Source: an uncultured Clostridiaceae bacterium (GTDB lineage Bacteria > Bacillota > Clostridia > TANB77 > CAG-508). Taken from it: a DNA stretch of 64,000 nt. The stretch lies in assembly GCA_948356915.1 (NCBI GenBank), contig CAOJCG010000012.1:232-64231 (forward strand), read 5' to 3'. The notes under the pieces were generated by a model. It ran no database searches and was not told where the DNA came from. It saw only the letters and a list, made by a program, of their open reading frames with translations. Made by a program: the position numbers and the translations under genes. Positions 39,715 to 61,457 of this stretch are shown here, piece after piece (position 1 is the stretch's first letter; each line of letters opens with the position of its first letter).

Positions 39715-41086
39715 ATGGAAAATAAAAAAAATAATAAGAAAAGAAGGGTTGCTTTTTTTACTTTACGGTTGCAAAGTAAATCAATACGAAACAAATGCAA
39801 TGATAGAGCAATTTATGAAAAAAGGATATGAAATAGTAAATTTTGAAGAAAAGGCAGACATATATATAATAAACACATGCACAGTAACAAATATGGCAGA
39901 TAGAAAATCAAGACAAATGTTAAGAAGAGTTAAAGAAATAAATAGAGAGGCTATAGTGGTAGCATGTGGTTGTTATGCACAAGTAGCGAAGGAAGAACTA
40001 GAAAAAATTCCAGAAATAGATTTAATATATGGGACAAATGAGAAAAATAGGATAGCAGAATATATTGAGAGGGAGTGCCCATTCCAATTGGGGACGTTTC
40101 CAATTGGGGTATCTGACACTTTTGGGGTATCTGTCCCTTTTGGGAAATTTCCTAATGGAAAAGTAACAGATGTAATGTACCAAAAAGAATTTTTAGATTT
40201 TGGTACAACATTGTACACAGAAAAAACAAGAGCAGTTATAAAAGTTCAAGATGGTTGTGATAGATTTTGTAGTTATTGCATAATTCCATATGCAAGAGGG
40301 CATGTAAGGAGTAGAAAGCCAGAAAGTGTTATAGAGGAAATAAAAGGGATAGCAAAAGAAGGAATAAAAGAAGTAGTTATAACAGGAATACATGTAGCTT
40401 CTTATGGAAAAGATTTTAAAGATGATATAGGTTTAATTGATTTACTAGAAAAAGTAAATGAAATTGAAGGAATAGAAAGAATACGTTTAGGTTCAATAGA
40501 ACCAACAATAATAACTGATGGATTTTTAGAAAGACTAACAAAGCTAGAAAAAATATGTGATCATTTTCATCTATCACTTCAAAGTGGTTGTGATGAAACA
40601 CTAAAAAGAATGAATAGAAAATACACAACTGAACAATTTAGAAAAAGTACTAACCTTCTAAAAAAAGCATATCCAAATGTAGCACTAACAACAGATATAA
40701 TAGTAGGTTTTCCAGGGGAAACAGATGAAGAATTTGAAAAAACATATAACTTCCTAAAAGAAATAGATTTCTATAAAATGCACATATTCAAATATTCACA
40801 AAGGAGAGGAACAAAAGCAGCTGTAATGGCAAATCAAATAGATGGAAATGTAAAAGAACAAAGAAGTAGAAGGTTAATAGACTTATCTAACAAAAATGAA
40901 AAAAGGCATAATGAGAAATATATTGGAAAAGAAGTAAAAGTTTTATTTGAAGAAAAAGAAGGAGATTATATAAAGGGTCATACTACTAATTATATGGTTG
41001 TAAAAATACCATACAGAAAAATAGAAAATATTATTGAAAAAGTTAAAATTGATAAGGAAGAAAATTTAGAATTAATAGGAAAATAA
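39715..41086 (+). pseudogene. mtaB: tRNA methylthiotransferase MtaB (MiaB-like), N-terminal frameshift
   Basis: ATG 39715 frame gives MENKKNNKKRRVAFFTL, matching the conserved VAFYTL N-terminus. GCKVNQYE...CxxxCxxC(CSYC)...TRAM continues in another frame from about 39766 (track ORF 39749..41086, TTG start). Confidence 0.7.
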
Positions 41087-41315
41087 TTTAAATAGTGAAA
41101 ACGTAATTTATTATATTTACTGTTAAAGAATATTTTGTTATATAGGGGCGAGGTAGGTAAGAAATACTAAAAGAAATTAGCTAGTTGCCCCCTAAATAGT
41201 TTTCATTTTAAGAGGTAAATAATAAAAAACAAGTTGACATATTGTATGGTTTTATGTATAATATAAGAAGTTAAAAAGAAAGTAATAAACCAATTCTTAA
41301 TTAAGGAGGTAATAT

Positions 41316-41594
41316 ATGAAAAGGATTATTACAAAGGAATGGAAACGGGTAAAAAATATTGTACAAAAAAATAAGTCAATACAAAGTGCAGTGTTTACCC
41401 TATTTTCTATTTTTATAGGTGGAATATTAGCAACTATTGGAGTAGCGATATTTGAACCTACTTATGTGTATCCATCAATAAGAATCTTCATAGCAACATA
41501 TCTTGCAGGGGGAATATTATTCATAATAGGCATTGTAGCAATAGTTATTAATATAGCGCTATTATGGCTTGCGATTAGCTTATTTAATCATTAA
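41316..41594 (+). CDS. Small membrane protein (2 TM)
   Basis: 92 aa with RBS aaggagg and promoter TTGACA-17-TATAAT upstream. Confidence 0.4.
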   Translation: MKRIITKEWKRVKNIVQKNKSIQSAVFTLFSIFIGGILATIGVAIFEPTYVYPSIRIFIATYLAGGILFIIGIVAIVINIALLWLAISLFNH

Positions 41595-41610
41595 ACAAGG
41601 AGAAAAAAGT

Positions 41611-42000
41611 ATGAGAAGAATTAATTTGAAGGAAATTTTACGGCAGACTCTTGAAAATGCAGGAATTTCAGAAAGCTATTACAGTATAAAAGGCTATAAA
41701 GAAGGTGCTACATGCATGGAAAAAACAGGTAAAGTATATGTGGTATATGATGCCAAAAGAGCAGAAAAATATATACATAAAGAATGCAAAAATGAACTAG
41801 AAGCATGTAAAGAGATGATTCGTAGCATAGCTAAAAATAATGAAGATTTTCAAATACTTAGTCAAGAATTTTTTGATGCTAGAGCTAAAGAAGTATTAAA
41901 ACAAGTATTTGATAATGAAGGCATACCACAGCAGTATTATTCCTTAGAAGGATATGTAGAAGAAGCAGTATGCATTGAAAAAATAATAAAAACTATATAG
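41611..42000 (+). CDS. Hypothetical protein with an internal duplicated ~20-aa motif
   Basis: YYSIKGYKEGATCMEK repeats as YYSLEGYVEEAVCIEK. ATG 41611 follows RBS aaggagaaaaaagt. Confidence 0.4.
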   Translation: MRRINLKEILRQTLENAGISESYYSIKGYKEGATCMEKTGKVYVVYDAKRAEKYIHKECKNELEACKEMIRSIAKNNEDFQILSQEFFDARAKEVLKQVFDNEGIPQQYYSLEGYVEEAVCIEKIIKTI

Positions 42001-42410
42001 TGTATATTGGTGAAAGAGGTAATAAACATAGTGTAAGTAAGCATTCAAATATATCAAAAGCACTCTTAAATCTTATTTCAAAGGTAACACAAAACTATGC
42101 GCAAGAAGAAAGAGTAGTAGAAGCTTTCATAAATAAATTATATAAAACAGCATAGAAATAAAAAAGTTGATAGATTACTAATTAGTAGTTTATCAGCTTT
42201 TTTATTATGGACAATGGAACAATGTTTTATCACTAGGATTTCAGAATTAAATTTAGATAAGTAGAAAATCAAATGGTAGACAAGAGTAGTAAACAAACCA
42301 CCTTCCCATTGTCACTATTTTGAAATAATTAACTAGAAACCTTGATTTTTAAGCCTATATGTAATATAATTTCAAATAATGTTATAGGAAATAATAGGAG
42401 GAAAATAAAA

Positions 42411-44171
42411 ATGGAAAAGAAAAATTTAAAAGATTTATATATAAATTTCTTTGTAGAAAATGCACATGTTCAAATACCATCAGCGCCAGTTGTGCCAGAA
42501 AATGACCCAAGTGTACTATTTAATACAGCAGGAATGCAACCATTAGTGCCATATTTAATGGGGCAAAAACATCCACTAGGAACACGTCTTTGCGACTATC
42601 AAAAATGTATAAGAACAAATGACTTAGAAGAAATAGGAGATAAAACACACCACACATTTTTTGAAATGCTAGGAAACTGGAGTTTAGGAGATTACTTCAA
42701 AAAAGAATCTATTACATGGAGTTTTGAATTTTTAACAAAAGTATTAAACATACCAGTTGAAAAACTAGCAGTAACAGTATTCGAAGGAAATAATGAAGTT
42801 CCAAGAGATGAAGAATCAGCAAATGTATGGAAAAGTTTAGGCATTCCAGCAGAAAGAATAAGTTACTTAGATAAAGACAATAACTTCTGGATAGCAGGAG
42901 AAGTAGGTCCATGTGGACCAGATACAGAAATATTTTACTGGAGAAGCGAAGACGAAGTCCCACAAAAACACGACCCAGAAGATGAAAGATGGGTAGAAAT
43001 ATGGAACAATGTATTTATGCAATATGAAAGACATAAAGATGGAACAGTAACAGAACTTCCACATAAAAATGTAGATACAGGAATGGGAGTAGAAAGAACA
43101 GTAGCAATACTAGAGGGAGTAGATGACAACTACTTAACATCAATATGGGAAGATGTAGTAGGGAAAATAGAAGAAATGTCAAATACAACATATGTAGAAA
43201 ACGCAAAAAGTATAAGAATAATAGCAGACCATATACGTACAGCAGTATTTATTGCAGGAGATAACTCAGGAATAAAGCCATCAAACACAGACCAAGGCTA
43301 TATATTAAGAAGATTAATAAGAAGAATGATACGCCATGCTAAAAAAATAGGAATAGATTTAGAAAGTGGTTTTGAAAGAACTTTAGCATTAATGATAATA
43401 GAAAAATATGCAAAATATTATGATGAACTAGAAAAAAATAAAGAAGTAATATTAGATGTTTTAACAAATGAATTAAAGAAATTTAACAGAACTCTAGAAA
43501 AAGGTTTAAGAGAATTTGAAAAAATAGTATCAAATTTAGAAGGAACTACATTAAACAAAGATTTAGCATTCAAACTATATGACACATACGGTTTCCCACT
43601 AGAGCTAACAGTAGAACTAGCAGAAGAAAAAGGAATAACAGTAGATAAAGTTGGTTTCGAACAAAAATTTAAAGAACACCAAGAAAAATCAAGAGCAGGT
43701 TCAGAGCAAAGGTTTAAAGGAGGTCTCGCAGGAGATGGCGAAATAGAAACAAAATATCATACAGCAACACACCTTTTAAATGCAGCACTAAAACAAATAA
43801 TAAGTAAAGATGTACATCAAAGAGGTTCAAATATAACAGTAGAAAGAATGAGATTTGACTTCAACTGTGACCACAAATTAACAGATGAAGAAAAACAAAA
43901 AGTAGAAGACCTAGTAAATGAATGGATAAAACAAGAAATACCAGTAACAGTAGAAGAAATGAGCAAACAAGAAGCAATAGAATCAGGAGCAGAGTGTATG
44001 TTTATAGAGAAATATCCAAATATTGTTACAGTATATAGTATAGGGGATATATCAAAAGAACTATGCGGAGGTCCACATGTACAAAATACAAAAGAGCTAG
44101 GACACTTTAAAATAAAAAAAGAAGAAGCAAGTTCAGCAGGAGTAAGGAGAATTAAAGCAATATTGGAGTAG
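42411..44171 (+). CDS. alaS: Compact alanine--tRNA ligase-like protein lacking the editing-domain beta-barrel and the C-Ala domain
   Basis: Class II AlaRS catalytic motifs (FNTAGMQ, KCIRTNDLEEIGDKTHHTFFEMLGNWSLGDYF, GPCGPDTEIFY, WNNVFMQYER). A short linker leads directly to editing-core motifs HTATHLL and CGGPH. 586 aa total. Confidence 0.7.
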   Translation: MEKKNLKDLYINFFVENAHVQIPSAPVVPENDPSVLFNTAGMQPLVPYLMGQKHPLGTRLCDYQKCIRTNDLEEIGDKTHHTFFEMLGNWSLGDYFKKESITWSFEFLTKVLNIPVEKLAVTVFEGNNEVPRDEESANVWKSLGIPAERISYLDKDNNFWIAGEVGPCGPDTEIFYWRSEDEVPQKHDPEDERWVEIWNNVFMQYERHKDGTVTELPHKNVDTGMGVERTVAILEGVDDNYLTSIWEDVVGKIEEMSNTTYVENAKSIRIIADHIRTAVFIAGDNSGIKPSNTDQGYILRRLIRRMIRHAKKIGIDLESGFERTLALMIIEKYAKYYDELEKNKEVILDVLTNELKKFNRTLEKGLREFEKIVSNLEGTTLNKDLAFKLYDTYGFPLELTVELAEEKGITVDKVGFEQKFKEHQEKSRAGSEQRFKGGLAGDGEIETKYHTATHLLNAALKQIISKDVHQRGSNITVERMRFDFNCDHKLTDEEKQKVEDLVNEWIKQEIPVTVEEMSKQEAIESGAECMFIEKYPNIVTVYSIGDISKELCGGPHVQNTKELGHFKIKKEEASSAGVRRIKAILE

Positions 44172-44535
44172 AAAATAAGAGAAGTTCGAATAAGGACTTC
44201 TCTTATTAAAAAGGAGCTTACAAATGTAAGCTCCACAACCATACAGTCAATACCGCTGGTTCGTCGCGTGACAATGTCACACGGTACGGCACATCTACGT
44301 GATACATATGAGACATGCTAGATACTCTCAATAGAGTACACTTATTATATAATAATTTTTAAAAATGTCAATATTTAATGCAAAATTTTTTAAAACATAT
44401 TAATTGATTTTTAAAACAATTTATAATATAATTATTAACATATTTTAAAATTTATTTTGAAAAGTATTAAATATCAAAATAGTATGATATTATCTAATAT
44501 TTTACAAAAAAATAAATTAAGAGATAGGAGAAAAA

Positions 44536-46092
44536 ATGGAACTTTTAAAGAAATATTATAATAAAGAAAAAATGAGAATTTTACTTGTAACAGTAATAAC
44601 TTCTATGATTGTACACTTTGCATTATATGCAACTTCTGTAACAGGTCCAGATACATTATTAAATAGTATGTACCATCAGGCAGATATATGGGAAACAATG
44701 TTATTAAGATTTGGACTTTTCTTTGTTCAAATTATTAAAGGGAATGTTGTATCACCAATATTAGCAACTTTAATAAGTAGTATATTGTTGGGAATAACAG
44801 TAAATGTGGTGTTAGATATATTTAATATTAAAAATAAATATTTTAAATATATTACAGCAGTTGTATTTGCAGTAGCTCCAAATATATCGTCAACATTAAC
44901 ATTTTTTTATTGCTCAGATGCATATTTACTAGGATTACTTTTTGCAACCCTAGCAGTATATATAATAAGAAAATATGAAAATAAAAATTGGTTAGTAATT
45001 ATAAGCGGTTTGCTGTTAGCTTTAGCTATGGGAATGTATCAAACATATTTATCAGTAACTATGGTTTTATGTGTTGCTACATTATTAATAGATGTATTAA
45101 ACAATAAAGACAAAAAGCAAATATTTATTACTCTATTTAAATATATAGTAATGGGAATAATAGGAGTAATAATGTTTTACTTAATAGCACATGCGGTATT
45201 GCTAATAAGACATTTACATGCAAGCTCATATAGTGGCGCAGATTCAATAGGTTTAGGAACTTTATTACAATTACCTAACTTACTTCCACAAGCATATAAA
45301 AGTTTCTTTAATTATTATTTTAATGATGAAATTATACCAAATACAATATGGAAAACAAATATACTATATATTGTTATATTTACAATAGCAGTAATTTCAA
45401 CAATCTATATTATAATAGAAAATAGAATATATAAAAAAATTACAAATATGATATTAGCATTAATTTTTATATTAATAGCTCCAATATGTTTTGGAATAAT
45501 AGAAATAACAGTTCCAGATGTAGACATACATATACTTATGGCATGTTCAATGATATACATATTTCCAATATTCTTTAAATTATTAGAAATGCTCCCAAAA
45601 ACTAAGATTGTTAGAAATATTACATATATTATGGTATTTTCTAGTATACTTGTTATTTGGAATTATACTTGGCAAGACAATGCTTCATATGTTGCAATGA
45701 AAGCAATGCAGAATCAAACTGGGGCAGCAGTTTCAAGAATAGTAACAAGAATAGAAGAGCTAGAAGGCTATAATAGTCAAATGCCAGTATTATTTTTAGG
45801 TGGTTTAGAGAACAATGAATACTTAAATAGAGCAAATACAGACACAGAAGCAAGAAAGATATATGATAGGTCGTGGGGCTTTATAGCAAATAAGTCAACA
45901 TTATGGTGGGGAAGTATGGATAGTTGGAGAAAAATACTATACGAATATGAAGGTGTAAATACAAAATTAGTAAATGAACATGAAAGTTCAGAGATATTCG
46001 AAACAGAAGAATATAAAAATATGAAATATTACCCAGAAAGAGATAGTATAAAAATTATAAATAATACAGTTGTTGTTAAACTAAGTGATTAG
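44536..46092 (+). CDS. Polytopic membrane protein, possibly a GT-C/GtrII-like glycosyltransferase
   Basis: 518 aa with about 10 or more TM segments and a C-terminal soluble domain. Confidence 0.4.
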   Translation: MELLKKYYNKEKMRILLVTVITSMIVHFALYATSVTGPDTLLNSMYHQADIWETMLLRFGLFFVQIIKGNVVSPILATLISSILLGITVNVVLDIFNIKNKYFKYITAVVFAVAPNISSTLTFFYCSDAYLLGLLFATLAVYIIRKYENKNWLVIISGLLLALAMGMYQTYLSVTMVLCVATLLIDVLNNKDKKQIFITLFKYIVMGIIGVIMFYLIAHAVLLIRHLHASSYSGADSIGLGTLLQLPNLLPQAYKSFFNYYFNDEIIPNTIWKTNILYIVIFTIAVISTIYIIIENRIYKKITNMILALIFILIAPICFGIIEITVPDVDIHILMACSMIYIFPIFFKLLEMLPKTKIVRNITYIMVFSSILVIWNYTWQDNASYVAMKAMQNQTGAAVSRIVTRIEELEGYNSQMPVLFLGGLENNEYLNRANTDTEARKIYDRSWGFIANKSTLWWGSMDSWRKILYEYEGVNTKLVNEHESSEIFETEEYKNMKYYPERDSIKIINNTVVVKLSD

Positions 46093-50781: not shown

Positions 50782-51409
50782 TTGAAAGAAAAAGAATTAC
50801 AAAGATTAACTGAACTAAAACAAATAGAAGAAAACTTACATTCACAAGGAATAGAATACATATGTGGAATAGATGAAGCAGGGCGTGGTCCACTAGCAGG
50901 GCCAGTAGTAGTTGCAGCAACAATAATGCCAAAAGATTCAATGATAGAAGGAGTTAATGACTCAAAAAAAGTTTCAGAGAAAAAAAGAGAATTACTATAC
51001 GAAAAAATAACTGAAGAAGCAATAGCGTGGGGAGTAGGTATAATAGACCAAAAAGAAATAGATAGAATAAATATACTAAATGCAACAAAAGAAGGACTAA
51101 CTCAAGCACTAAAAGCACTAACTGTAAAGCCAGATAGAATAATAGTAGATGCCCTAAATGGAATAGATACACTTCGGAATACCATACACATCAATAATAA
51201 AGGGAGACGCAAAATGCTATTCAATAGCAGCAGCCTCAATAATAGCAAAAGTAACAAGAGATAGAATAATGCGTCAGTGGGATGAAATATACCCTATGTA
51301 TGGCTTTGAAAAACATAAGGGATATGGAACAAAAGCACACATAGAAGCAATAAAAGAATATGGCTTATGCCCATTACATAGACTAAGCTTTACTAAGAAT
51401 ATAAGATGA
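50782..51409 (+). pseudogene. rnhB: Ribonuclease HII, frameshifted
   Basis: ICGIDEAGRGPLAGPVV is in frame 1. The conserved C-terminal region [31 protein letters not shown]...[14 protein letters not shown]...HRLSF is in the +1 frame, and the shift is near 51172-51178 (cttcgga). Confidence 0.75.
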
Positions 51410-53471: not shown

Positions 53472-55532
53472 ATGCATAAATTTGGAGAATTTGTATGTAA
53501 ATACAAAAAAGCAATTTTAATAATTGCACTACTACTATTAATTCCATCTATAATAGGAATGAAAGCTACAAGAATAAACTACGACATATTAGTATATCTT
53601 CCAAATGACATAGAAACAATAAAAGGCGAAAAAATACTATCTGAAGATTTTAATATGGGAGCATTTTCTATTATAATAGTGGATGATATGAATACAAAAG
53701 ATATTATAAAATTAGAAAATAAAATAAAAGAAATAGAAAGCGTACAAAAAGTAGTAAGTATAGCAGATGTTTTAGGAACAAGCATTCCAAAGGAAATTCT
53801 ACCAGATGAAATAAAAGATAAAGTATATAAAGAAAATTCTAGCGTAATGTTAGTAACATTTAAGGGTGGAATATCCGAAGATAGTACAGTAAAAGCAGTA
53901 GAGGAGCTAAGAGAGATAACAGACCAAAGGTGCAAAATAAGTGGAATGACCTCTACTGTAATAGACACAAGAGACTTATCAAACTCAGAAGTAGCAATAT
54001 ATGTAATAATAGCAGTATTACTTTGTCTTTTAGTATTGGAAATAGCACTAGATTCATATGCAGTACCAGTTATAATATTACTAAACATAGGAATAGCAAT
54101 TCTATATAATATGGGAACAAATATAATGTTTGGAGAAATTTCGTACATAACAAAAGCAATAAGTGCAGTATTACAACTAGGTGTAACAATGGACTTTGCA
54201 ATATTCCTATATCATAGTTATATGCAAGAAAAAGAAAAGTGCGAAAATAAAGAAAAATCAATGGCAAATGCAATATCAAAAACACTAATATCTGTAATAG
54301 GAAGTTCACTTACAACAATAGCAGGTTTCTTAGCATTATGTAGTATGAACTTAACACTAGGAAAAGATATTGGTTTAGTAATGGCAAAGGGAGTATTTTT
54401 AGGAGTAATAAGTGTAGTTACAGTATTACCAGCAATGATATTAGAGTTAGATAATTTAATACAAAAAGCAAAACATAAGGAAATATTACCTAAATTTACT
54501 AAAATAAAAGAATTAGTAATAAAACACTATAAATTAATAGCAATAATATTCATTATAATATTACCTATAGCATTTTATGGATATAAAAATACTAAAGTTT
54601 ACTACAACCTAGATAAATCATTACCAAAAACTTTAGAAAGTGTAATAGCAAATAGTGAATTAAAAGAGAAATTTAATATGGTATCAACTGAGCTTCTATT
54701 AGTAGACAAAAACTTACCAAACTCTAAATTAGATGAAATGATAAACAAAATAGAAGAACTAGATGGAATAGAGTGGACTTTAAGTTCTTCAAAAATACAA
54801 AACCTAGGAATACCAAAAGAAACAATACCAGAAGAAATAAAAGAAATATTTGAAAGTGAAAAACACCAAATAATTATAATAAATTCAAGATATGAAATGG
54901 CAACAGATGAGCTAAACGAGCAAGTTGAAAGCATAGATAATATAGTAAAACAATATGACGAAAATGCAATGCTAGCAGGAGAAGGTCCATTAATGAAAGA
55001 CTTAGTACAAATAGCAGACCACGACTTTAACAGTGTAAACATTGTTTCAATAGCAATAATATTTGCAATAATGATAATTGTTCTAAAATCAATATCATTA
55101 CCAGTAATATTAATAATGGTAATAGAGTTTGCAATATTCATAAATATGGGAATACCATATTACACAAACACAGTCTTGCCATTTGTAGCCTCAATAGTAA
55201 TAGGAACAATACAACTAGGAGCAACAATAGACTATGCAATACTAATAACAACAAAATATATAGGAGCAAGAAAAGAAGGAAAAGAGAAAAAAGAGGCAGT
55301 ATCAGAAGCATTAGGAACATCAATTAGTTCAATAGCAGTAAGTGGCCTATGTTTCTTTGGAGCAACATTTGGAGTAGGAGCATACTCAAAAATAGAAATG
55401 ATAGGCTCACTATGCACACTAATGTCAAGAGGCGCAATAATAAGTATGATAACAGTAATATGTGCATTACCTGCATTTTTGATAATATTTGATAAGCTTA
55501 TATGCAAAACAACAATGAAAATGGAGAAATAG
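53472..55532 (+). CDS. MMPL/RND-superfamily membrane transporter
   Basis: 686 aa with two 6-TM bundles and extracytoplasmic loops. Divergent from tetR. Confidence 0.75.
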   Translation: MHKFGEFVCKYKKAILIIALLLLIPSIIGMKATRINYDILVYLPNDIETIKGEKILSEDFNMGAFSIIIVDDMNTKDIIKLENKIKEIESVQKVVSIADVLGTSIPKEILPDEIKDKVYKENSSVMLVTFKGGISEDSTVKAVEELREITDQRCKISGMTSTVIDTRDLSNSEVAIYVIIAVLLCLLVLEIALDSYAVPVIILLNIGIAILYNMGTNIMFGEISYITKAISAVLQLGVTMDFAIFLYHSYMQEKEKCENKEKSMANAISKTLISVIGSSLTTIAGFLALCSMNLTLGKDIGLVMAKGVFLGVISVVTVLPAMILELDNLIQKAKHKEILPKFTKIKELVIKHYKLIAIIFIIILPIAFYGYKNTKVYYNLDKSLPKTLESVIANSELKEKFNMVSTELLLVDKNLPNSKLDEMINKIEELDGIEWTLSSSKIQNLGIPKETIPEEIKEIFESEKHQIIIINSRYEMATDELNEQVESIDNIVKQYDENAMLAGEGPLMKDLVQIADHDFNSVNIVSIAIIFAIMIIVLKSISLPVILIMVIEFAIFINMGIPYYTNTVLPFVASIVIGTIQLGATIDYAILITTKYIGARKEGKEKKEAVSEALGTSISSIAVSGLCFFGATFGVGAYSKIEMIGSLCTLMSRGAIISMITVICALPAFLIIFDKLICKTTMKMEK

Positions 55533-58978: not shown

Positions 58979-59795
58979 ATGATATATTTAAAAACATTTA
59001 AATTAAGTAATAGCAAAATAAGAAATAACAATATATATCCTTTCAATATACTAAAAAATAAAGAACCAGACATATTTGTATTTGACAATATAACTGTACT
59101 ATATGGAAATAATGGTTCTGGGAAATCTACAATATTAAATATAATAGCAAATAAATTAAATTTAAAAGGAAAAGAAAAAGATAATCCAGAAGTAATAGGA
59201 AAATTAAATTATTTTGAAGAATTTGCATCAAAATGTGAGTATCAATTAGGTGAGTTTGAAAATGGCAAAAAGATAGCCAGAATACCTGAAAATAGTAGAT
59301 ATATAAAAAGTGAAGAAATACTATATGAAATAAGAAAAATTGAACAAGAGAATGTCTTAAAAGAAGGATATGTAGCGAATTTAGTAAGAAGTTGTATGGA
59401 AGTAGAACAAGCAAAACAGAGTGTAAGTACAGAAAAGCGGACAAGTTCAATTAGAAAGATTTAAATTCGCACAAGATAAATATTCAAATGGAGAAACAAC
59501 CATGCAAATATTAGAAGACAATATAGAACCAGATAACCTATATTTACTAGACGAACCAGAAGTATCACTATCCCCACAAAACCAAGTAAAACTTGCAAAA
59601 AAAATAAATGAAATGGCAAGATACTTAGGAATACAATTTATAATAGCAACGCACTCACCATTTATGTTAGGAATATTAGACGCAAAAATATACAATTTAG
59701 ATACAAAAGAATATGAAGTGCAAAAGTGGAGTGAACTTGAAAATGTAAAATATTTTTATAACTTTTTCAAAGATAGGGAAGAGGAATTTAAATAA
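58979..59795 (+). pseudogene. AAA/ABC-type ATPase (AAA_21-like) split into two frames
   Basis: Walker A GNNGSGKST is in ORF 58979..59464. The signature-like YSNGE, Walker B LLDEPE and H-loop ATHSP are in ORF 59502..59795, which sits in the +1 frame. Confidence 0.6.
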
Positions 59796-60351: not shown

Positions 60352-60365
60352 AAATGGAGAAATAT

Positions 60366-61457
60366 ATGAAGATAAATTTTGAAGAATTATTTGAAGAAAA
60401 AATTTTAAAAAGAGGTTATAGTTATTACCTAGAAGATTCAGTTCATGATGTTACTAAAAATGGTAACTGTTATGAAGGATTAGTATATGGAACAGAAATA
60501 TATGAGGTACAAGTAGAAATTAATGAAAATGGTAATGTAGAAAATATGGATTGTGATTGCCCTTATGCAGAGGAAAATAATTGTAAACATATGGCTGCGC
60601 TTTTATATTATATTGAGAACGACGGAGAAATTGAAAATAAAAAAATAATAAGAAATATAGATAACTTTGATAAAATACTAGATAGAATATCTGAAAATGA
60701 AATCAAAGAATTTGTTTTAGAAAAGTTATATGAAAATTCAGAATTTCAAAACGAATTTAGAAGTAAGTTTGTTCAATATTTTGAAAAAACTCCTAAAAGA
60801 GTATATGAAAGAAGAATATCTCAAAGTGTATATCAAGCAATAGGAAGAAAAGGATTTATTGAATATAATGAAACAGATAGATTTTCAGATCCAATGTATG
60901 ATTATATACAAGAAGCAAGAAATTTAATAAGACATAAGGAATATCAAGCACCATTTTGGATAGCAAGTTTAATATTAGAAGAACTTCCAGACTTGCCTAT
61001 TGATGATTCAGATGGAACGACTACCTATGTAGAAGATGAATGTATAGAAGTTATAGAAGAAATATTGGAGAAATGTAAAAGTGAAAATATTATAAATGAA
61101 ATATTTGATTGGATTATTAAAACAATTAAAAATGATACTTTAGGTGATTATTCTGATGGAATCGAAAAGATATTAGATGAATATTTTACAGAAGATAAAT
61201 TTATAAATGAAAGATTAAAAATAATAGATACAAAGATACAGGAATTAAATAAAGAAAAAGACCGTTATTCAGAATACGAATTAGAAAACCTAATAAAAAC
61301 TAAAATAGCATTATTATATCAATTAGGAAAAGATAAAGAGGCACTAGGAACAATAAAGGATAACATTTATTTTATTCCAATTAGAAGAATGTTAATTGAT
61401 AAAGAAAGAGAAAATGGAAATATTGATCAAGTAGAAAAACTACTAAAGGAAGAATGA
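60366..61457 (+). CDS. SWIM zinc-finger domain protein
   Basis: CxCxnCxH motif MDCDCPYAEENNCKHMAALL. RBS ggag precedes ATG 60366 (the track ORF starts at ATG 60354). Stop overlaps the next start (ATGA). Confidence 0.5.
   Translation: MKINFEELFEEKILKRGYSYYLEDSVHDVTKNGNCYEGLVYGTEIYEVQVEINENGNVENMDCDCPYAEENNCKHMAALLYYIENDGEIENKKIIRNIDNFDKILDRISENEIKEFVLEKLYENSEFQNEFRSKFVQYFEKTPKRVYERRISQSVYQAIGRKGFIEYNETDRFSDPMYDYIQEARNLIRHKEYQAPFWIASLILEELPDLPIDDSDGTTTYVEDECIEVIEEILEKCKSENIINEIFDWIIKTIKNDTLGDYSDGIEKILDEYFTEDKFINERLKIIDTKIQELNKEKDRYSEYELENLIKTKIALLYQLGKDKEALGTIKDNIYFIPIRRMLIDKERENGNIDQVEKLLKEE

Follow-up and report, generated by a model that had tools for sequence, protein, structure and literature searches.

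The 64,000-nt stretch of contig CAOJCG010000012.1 studied here (called the window below, its numbering being used throughout) carries on its plus strand a gene, alaS, for an alanyl-tRNA synthetase (AlaRS) of a short type (42411..44171; 586 amino acids followed by a TAG stop). Our analysis showed that the encoded protein is an unremarkable member of a family of short AlaRS that is large and already catalogued; in this family a module for aminoacylation and tRNA recognition is followed by a minimal editing core. The β-barrel subdomain and the C-Ala domain of AlaRS are missing. Both halves of the protein are under purifying selection, and this is probably the functional housekeeping AlaRS, and the only one, of a low-GC lineage of gut Firmicutes. 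A first-pass annotation, made from the sequence, had proposed the same architecture but had framed it as a special case of reduction; the architecture holds, and that framing is not supported.

Architecture of the window AlaRS

The open reading frame (ORF) extends from 42342 to 44171 on the plus strand, and the ATG at 42411 yields the 586-residue protein. An AGGAGG ribosome-binding site (42396..42401, plus strand) lies 9 nt 5′ of this ATG and the listed orthologues are almost all 586-587 amino acids long, so the gene limits proposed in the first-pass annotation are right. Three parts can be delimited, all on the plus strand: the aminoacylation and tRNA-recognition module (residues 1-430; 42411..43700), as seen with phmmer, Foldseek, and AlphaFold2; a linker (residues 431-443, SEQRFKGGLAGDG; 43701..43739); and the editing core (residues 444-586; 43740..44168). 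The N-terminal module is itself made of a catalytic core (roughly residues 1-240) and a helical tRNA-recognition domain (roughly residues 241-430).

The Pfam family tRNA-synt_2c (PF01411) matched residues 6-435 with an E value of 1e-140, the match covering only profile positions 2-436 of 552. When the protein was compared with the PDB by phmmer, residues 5-432 matched the AlaRS catalytic fragments 9jc7, 1riq, and 3hxu (E 3e-104 to 6e-94). The alignment of these residues to 9jc7 confirmed that the aminoacylation motifs are intact, as had been read from the sequence: the class II AlaRS signature elements FFEMLGN, GPCGP, VDTGMG-ER, PSN, and YDTYGFP are all kept, with N292 lying in the PSN motif and D391 in YDTYGFP. 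We take these elements to correspond to R69, D235, G237, N303, and D400 in the E. coli numbering.

The C-terminal part was recognized as an editing core by several models. Pfam tRNA_SAD matched residues 539-581, the NCBIfam AlaXM model aligned to residues 448-585, and the sequence search of the PDB linked residues 445-572 to AlaX-S. The two editing motifs noticed earlier are indeed present, HxxxH as HTATH at 450-454 and CxxxH as CGGPH at 552-556. All of 70 short and 67 canonical representatives carry their putative zinc ligands H450, H454, C552, and H556; Q470, G472, and R580 are likewise invariant in short and canonical forms alike, and S473 is nearly so. A GVRRI motif follows at 577-581, and the protein ends five residues past it. 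Two distances had been misjudged in the first-pass annotation: 49 residues, not about 20, separate TYGFPLELT (392-400) from HTATH, and the end of the protein, placed about 120 residues past the editing motifs, lies 132 residues past HTATH and 30 past CGGPH. As measured across the representatives, the spacing from YDTYGFP to HxxxH is 60 residues here versus 154-203 in canonical AlaRS, and the tail past CxxxH is 35 residues here versus ~180-300. Both the spacing of 60 and the tail of 35 are identical in the other short representatives.

An AlphaFold2 model was built from an alignment of eight sequences, with a mean predicted local distance difference test score (pLDDT) of 85.8 and a predicted template-modelling score of 0.70. 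The N-terminal module was modelled confidently (mostly pLDDT >85), residues 430-442 of the linker region were disordered (pLDDT <50), and the C-terminal domain formed a compact alpha/beta fold; no strands were modelled at 435-470. In a Foldseek comparison with the PDB, the N-terminal part superimposed on AlaRS catalytic fragments with target-normalised TM-scores of 0.77-0.87. The C-terminal part covered the whole of AlaX-S (1v4p, 1wnu, and 1v7o) over ~150 residues, with target-normalised TM-scores of 0.84-0.88 and root-mean-square deviations of 1.8-2.9 Å. Pfam, phmmer, MAFFT, and the AlphaFold2/Foldseek comparison thus agree with the earlier statement that the domains for catalysis and tRNA recognition are joined directly to a minimal editing core.

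The absence of the β-barrel and of C-Ala, also claimed before, was confirmed. The Pfam scan of the protein gave no DHHA1/C-Ala (PF02272) match. In the MAFFT alignment with the full-length AlaRS P0140, 11 residues of the window protein fell in the 101-residue β-barrel region and two in the 151-residue C-Ala region. Finally, a tblastn search with the barrel and C-Ala segments of nine AlaRS against the window and 81 related loci returned nothing better than E 0.4; no remnant of either element is therefore found downstream in any frame, and no separate C-Ala gene nearby.

The resemblance of the C-terminal part to AlaX-S raised the possibility of a recent fusion of a free-standing editing protein to a synthetase. 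This was rejected: the editing core shares 41-49% identity with its counterparts in canonical bacterial AlaRS and only ~22-26% with archaeal AlaX-S, and, judged from these sequence identities, it is AlaRS's own cis-editing core. The N-terminal module is 37-47% identical to canonical forms.

Inside the otherwise variable, low-confidence linker a motif stands out, F-K-G-G-L-A-x-D (residues 435-442; window 43713-43736). Its conservation in the 70 short-form representatives reaches 0.94 for F435, 0.90 for G437, 0.93 for G438, and 0.87 for L439. MAFFT aligns F-K-G-G-L with the Gly-rich F..GGQ.D.G motif of the canonical β-barrel, a pairing that is possibly an alignment artefact. With this motif the short forms may have kept the Gly-rich loop lining the editing pocket.

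A large and already annotated short family

The window protein is matched end to end by NCBIfam NF002436 (PRK01584), a 595-position "alanine--tRNA ligase" equivalog model, with residues 1-586 lying on profile positions 1-593 and a score of 824 bits against a cutoff of 529. It also passes TIGR00344, with 626 bits against a cutoff of 457. An identical protein is present in NCBI, ENA, and Logan, and close relatives are named "alanine--tRNA ligase [Clostridia bacterium]". A collection holding one genome per species contained at least 592 matching stretches; the best 80 of these are 67-95% identical and come from gut metagenome-assembled genomes (MAGs) labelled Bacilli, Clostridia, Tenericutes, or Erysipelotrichaceae, as well as from Clostridium sp. 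CAG:609 and UBA1742.

To place the architecture among AlaRS at large, 1.84 billion cluster representatives were searched exhaustively with HMMER, which gave 24,573 matches, and the best 150 representatives (one per 50%-identity cluster) were aligned with MAFFT. The architecture of the window protein, N-terminal module and editing core only, was shared by 73 of the 150; 67 were canonical, four were without the barrel but with C-Ala, and three were with the barrel but without C-Ala. The short forms that are 41-55% identical comprise both high-GC and very low-GC sequences. With a profile made from 27 diverse short forms, members were recovered that bear the names Patescibacteria, Nealsonbacteria, Parcubacteria, and Clostridia, from MAGs in which they are annotated as alanine--tRNA ligase. 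All short-form members tested pass NF002436: the Patescibacteria protein P0305, the Clostridia MAG protein P0356, two plasmid-borne copies described below, and P0141, P0147, and P0249. The window protein is a moderately diverged member, since it scores below both P0356 (998 bits) and the copies on plasmids (916-922 bits). The equivalog match, the frequency of the architecture among the representatives, and the relatives at 41-55% identity indicate that the shortening of AlaRS is old and widespread and did not arise from the reduction of this genome, and the earlier suggestion of a special reduced enzyme, or of a product of genome reduction here, is not supported.

In a rough neighbor-joining tree of the N-terminal module, most short forms stood apart from the canonical ones, with a small short-form group near the canonical cluster. 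One full-length protein, P0140 (885 amino acids; L082:292-2949), was nested among the short forms. Its N-terminal module bears the short-family signatures GQKHPLGTRLCN and SWSLGDYFKK; a contig search for it recovered only metagenome contigs of 3.6-5.4 kb. P0140 could be an ancestor-like form or a recombinant. Further non-prototype AlaRS architectures were seen in P0180, P0187, P0233, and P0269, and in P0173 and P0267. AlaRS forms of ~775-815 amino acids are without the β-barrel and with C-Ala, and forms of ~690-725 amino acids have the barrel and end directly past the editing core; since forms exist with either element alone, the loss of the barrel and the loss of C-Ala are independent events.

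A short form was also found in a phage collection. At 53602-55353 of record MT835476.1, a human-faecal contig of 114 kb labelled "Bacteriophage sp.", lies a gene for a one-piece short-form AlaRS that is 51.5% identical over 99% of the query; the contig may be a real phage or a mis-binned bacterial contig.

In the accessible literature we found no paper on, and no biochemical study of, the bacterial short family, which is apparently known to annotation databases and not to biochemistry.

Selection and the role of the short AlaRS

Compared with six orthologues, the window gene gave dN/dS values of 0.05-0.23 overall and of 0.05-0.14 for the linker and editing part, so that the editing part is at least as constrained as the N-terminal module. 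The stop codon lies at the aligned end in four of the six orthologues and two to five codons later in the other two. Because the gene is present across the clade, keeps a fixed chromosomal position, is under strong constraint, and belongs to a type that small-genome Patescibacteria use, a housekeeping role is favored. A 594-residue AlaRS may also be the sole one of Borrelia burgdorferi, a point given no weight here.

These observations leave almost no room for a recent, lineage-specific truncation, whether as a gene decaying through genome reduction or as a normal alaS distorted by an assembly or frameshift artefact. Such a model might be entertained in view of the low GC content (~28%), the MAG-type relatives, and at least one neighboring gene, for RNase HII, that looks split. 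Yet hundreds of independent assemblies, and relatives with as little as 41% identity, share the length and the domain boundaries, the match to the curated 595-position model runs from end to end, selection acts on both halves, the position of the stop is conserved, and the downstream sequence holds no C-Ala or barrel remnant in any frame. A truncation artefact or a pseudogene was thus rejected, being effectively refuted by the curated match, the orthologue lengths, the architecture census, the null search for remnants, and the selection analysis. It is also very improbable that the protein is an AlaRS-like enzyme working outside translation, for example, in forming alanyl-adenylate or supplying alanyl-tRNA for cell-wall or natural-product synthesis. 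Degenerate paralogues of the AlaRS N-domain do exist, such as a 386-residue "alanine--tRNA ligase-related protein" beside one of the plasmid copies, and a GtrII-type glycosyltransferase gene lies 3′ of the window alaS. However, the signature residues for catalysis, tRNA recognition, and editing are all kept and highly conserved here, both alaS equivalog cutoffs are passed, and the glycosyltransferase gene is not a conserved neighbor in relatives.

A further alternative is that the short enzyme is an accessory, second AlaRS next to a canonical full-length alaS, for instance, an isoform resistant to an inhibitor of the alanyl-adenylate type or a stress isoform. The plasmid-borne copies make this worth weighing. 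A tblastn search of a plasmid collection uncovered 595-residue short AlaRS, 51% identical to the window protein and well above the NF002436 cutoff, on NZ_CP068052.1 of Peribacillus psychrosaccharolyticus (L084) and NZ_CP053558.1 of Exiguobacterium sp. Helios (L085). Both copies lie in a shared cluster (L084, 3150-12407; L085, 1-13143) encoding an S-adenosylmethionine (SAM) methyltransferase, AsnA, an ATP-grasp protein, a major facilitator superfamily (MFS) transporter, and an S66 (MccF-like) peptidase, a layout that is typical where an antibiotic gene cluster includes a synthetase for self-resistance. The Peribacillus cluster additionally holds the 386-residue degenerate N-domain paralogue, and the Exiguobacterium cluster a deoxynucleoside kinase, a phosphotransferase, and a glycosyltransferase. 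The plasmid clusters look like the biosynthesis of an aminoacyl-nucleotide-type AlaRS inhibitor together with a self-resistance AlaRS. None of the genes of these clusters is found in the window or in the 81 related loci, apart from homologues of AsnA in three loci. A patchy distribution is usual for resistance paralogues, whereas this gene occurs in hundreds of species genomes of the clade, is adjacent to mtaB in the closest relatives, and has an omega of 0.05-0.2; no second alaS appeared in the 1.27 Mb sampled, and small-genome Patescibacteria carry the short type annotated as their AlaRS. An accessory role is therefore unlikely.

Several points nevertheless count against the housekeeping reading and its details. 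The plasmid-borne genes of Peribacillus and Exiguobacterium are of the same short type, and in Bacillales a canonical alaS is expected on the chromosome, so that belonging to the family is no proof of a housekeeping role. The lack of a second alaS in 1.27 Mb (the 64-kb window plus flanks of up to 10 kb around relatives) is weak evidence, as this sample is centered on the short gene itself. E. coli AlaRS deprived of C-Ala binds tRNA as much as 13-fold more weakly, and its N461 fragment is a poor tRNA binder (PMC10036535), so that efficient charging by the window enzyme is not guaranteed. The linker that carries the F-K-G-G-L motif was modelled with low confidence. On the other side, the Tupanvirus mini-AlaRS and the A. 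aeolicus N453 fragment charge acceptor-stem substrates efficiently, which makes C-Ala dispensable there (PMC10036535).

No separate C-Ala or AlaX gene was found near alaS in the window or in the related loci, the only extra match being the editing domain of a threonyl-tRNA synthetase (ThrRS) in a Bacilli MAG (L011; JAQUYH010000004.1). This ThrRS is encoded by a 588-residue ORF (L011:13803-15569, plus strand) ~2 kb 3′ of the short alaS of that genome. It opens with the N2 editing domain (HSCAHLLAH), leaving no space for an N-terminal TGS domain, and is apparently a second case of a shortened synthetase in this clade.

Genomic context, proposed mechanism, and comparison with known enzymes

The window has a GC content of about 26-35% with a strong positive GC skew, and the genes that surround alaS are of the ordinary chromosomal kind: rpsG, fusA, tuf, mtaB, htrA, and genes for a GtrII-like membrane protein, a TetR regulator, and an MMPL transporter. 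Next to alaS lie mtaB, small ORFs that match no family, and the GtrII-like gene. The closest relatives have mtaB immediately 5′ of alaS, and in more distant ones it is a few kb away; the GtrII-type gene downstream is not kept. No tRNA genes were found in the window, and no tRNA-Ala genes in 60 related loci, where they were sought to check G3:U70.

Between the preceding ORF and alaS lies a hairpin followed by a T-run (AGTTGATAGATTACTAATTAGTAGTTTATCAGCTTTTTTATT; 42162..42208, plus strand), a likely terminator insulating alaS from the upstream genes; it is absent from the pattern-scan list of terminators because its stem has too few G-C pairs. A sigma-70-like promoter, TTGATT-17 nt-TATAAT (42342..42370, plus strand), scores 10/12, and its -10 element ends 41 nt 5′ of the start codon. 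Matches of this kind occur at background frequency in AT-rich DNA, and this one is only suggestive. If it is used, the leader would be too short for a T-box. The first-pass annotation had found no T-box leader upstream, and our searches agree: Rfam gave no T-box match at the gathering score across the window and none relevant at E ≤ 1 over 41000-44700. Two hairpins directly past the stop codon (~44176-44208 and ~44213-44234; 44176..44234 overall), the second listed as terminator-like on the minus strand, probably end the alaS transcript.

Two other regions of the window drew attention. At 50782-51409 (plus strand) the RNase HII gene looks split: a 160-residue ORF (50782-51264) matches Pfam RNase_HII positions 1-115 of 199, and a 46-residue ORF (51269-51409, plus strand) resembles the missing C-terminus, so that the gene may be a pseudogene or carry a frameshift or a sequencing error. 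The segment 58979-62745 (plus strand), over which the GC skew climbs sharply, contains genes for a small P-loop ATPase-like protein (58979-59464) and for a SWIM zinc-finger protein (60354-61457), followed by two overlapping ORFs with no confident family match (one has a sub-threshold Pfam match); it may be an accessory or defence-type island.

Taken together with the architecture, these features suggest the following model. The alaS gene would be transcribed alone from a constitutive-looking promoter. Residues 1-430 would activate alanine and transfer it to tRNA-Ala, the acceptor stem with its G3:U70 pair being recognized via the conserved PSN and YDTYGFP elements. Within these, N292 and D391 are presumably the Asn and Asp that read G3:U70 (by the E. 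coli numbering and PMC10036535). The flexible 13-residue linker would tether the zinc-dependent editing core (444-586), which is predicted to hydrolyze Ser-tRNA-Ala, and perhaps Gly-tRNA-Ala, in cis. In E. coli AlaRS, C-Ala gives the contact to the tRNA elbow. Without this domain the window enzyme is expected to be monomeric and would bind tRNA via the acceptor stem only, with neither the elbow contact nor the oligomerisation element. The β-barrel is missing too, and the F-K-G-G-L linker motif is perhaps the residue of the Gly-rich loop that adjoins the editing pocket.

Set beside known systems, the window protein shows no structural difference from the other members of NF002436/PRK01584, which have the same N-terminal module and editing core with neither barrel nor C-Ala. 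The canonical bacterial enzyme (E. coli/TIGR00344, ~875 amino acids) is made of aminoacylation and tRNA-recognition domains, a β-barrel with editing core, and C-Ala. The window protein shares with it the class II signature, PSN, YDTYGFP, HxxxH, CxxxH, and GVRRI, but is without ~100-115 residues of β-barrel and ~175 residues of linker helix and C-Ala, and, unlike the canonical form, would be a monomer making no contact with the tRNA elbow. In contrast to T-box-regulated Firmicutes alaS genes, the window gene has no T-box leader. In their fold, a minimal editing core with no N-terminal barrel, the C-terminal 143 residues match AlaX-S (AlaXp type I, P. horikoshii PH0574); AlaX-S, however, is a free-standing protein of ~150-160 amino acids, whereas the window core is fused in cis to a synthetase, after a conserved Gly-containing linker motif. 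A self-resistance aminoacyl-tRNA synthetase paralogue would be expected among biosynthetic, export, or immunity genes and beside a housekeeping copy; the window alaS does not sit among such genes.

The accessible literature describes AlaRS as having one prototype architecture throughout biology, with C-Ala as the major tRNA-binding module, and it discusses exceptions only for the enzymes of Tupanvirus, nematode mitochondria, and Nanoarchaeum (PMC10036535, PMC8887476). The Tupanvirus mini-AlaRS (TuAlaRS), the C. elegans mitochondrial AlaRS (CeAlaRSm), and the split AlaRS of N. equitans are likewise natural departures from the "prototype" (PMC10036535, PMC8887476, PMC11392972). TuAlaRS binds and charges tRNA through the acceptor stem alone, without C-Ala (PMC10036535). 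It has no editing domain at all, whereas the window protein keeps the editing core; CeAlaRSm keeps a residual C-Ala, and the N. equitans enzyme is split over two genes. None of the three is bacterial and none belongs to NF002436.

For this window, the result adds one more orthologue of an annotated family, already known as such. More generally, the databases already hold a very large family of bacterial AlaRS without β-barrel and C-Ala. If the short AlaRS is the sole AlaRS of its hosts, these organisms would be natural test cases for how tRNA-Ala can be bound and proofread without the elbow contact, for whether editing needs the Gly-rich loop of the barrel, and for whether oligomerisation is dispensable. 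A bolder idea, to which we give little credence, is that the short family, rather than a degenerate offshoot, is an old, separately evolving AlaRS lineage, perhaps near an ancestral "synthetase plus minimal editing core" that predates the β-barrel and C-Ala, and that it serves as the sole AlaRS in whole clades including Patescibacteria and this group of gut Firmicutes. If true, this would contradict the textbook view of a single prototype AlaRS architecture.

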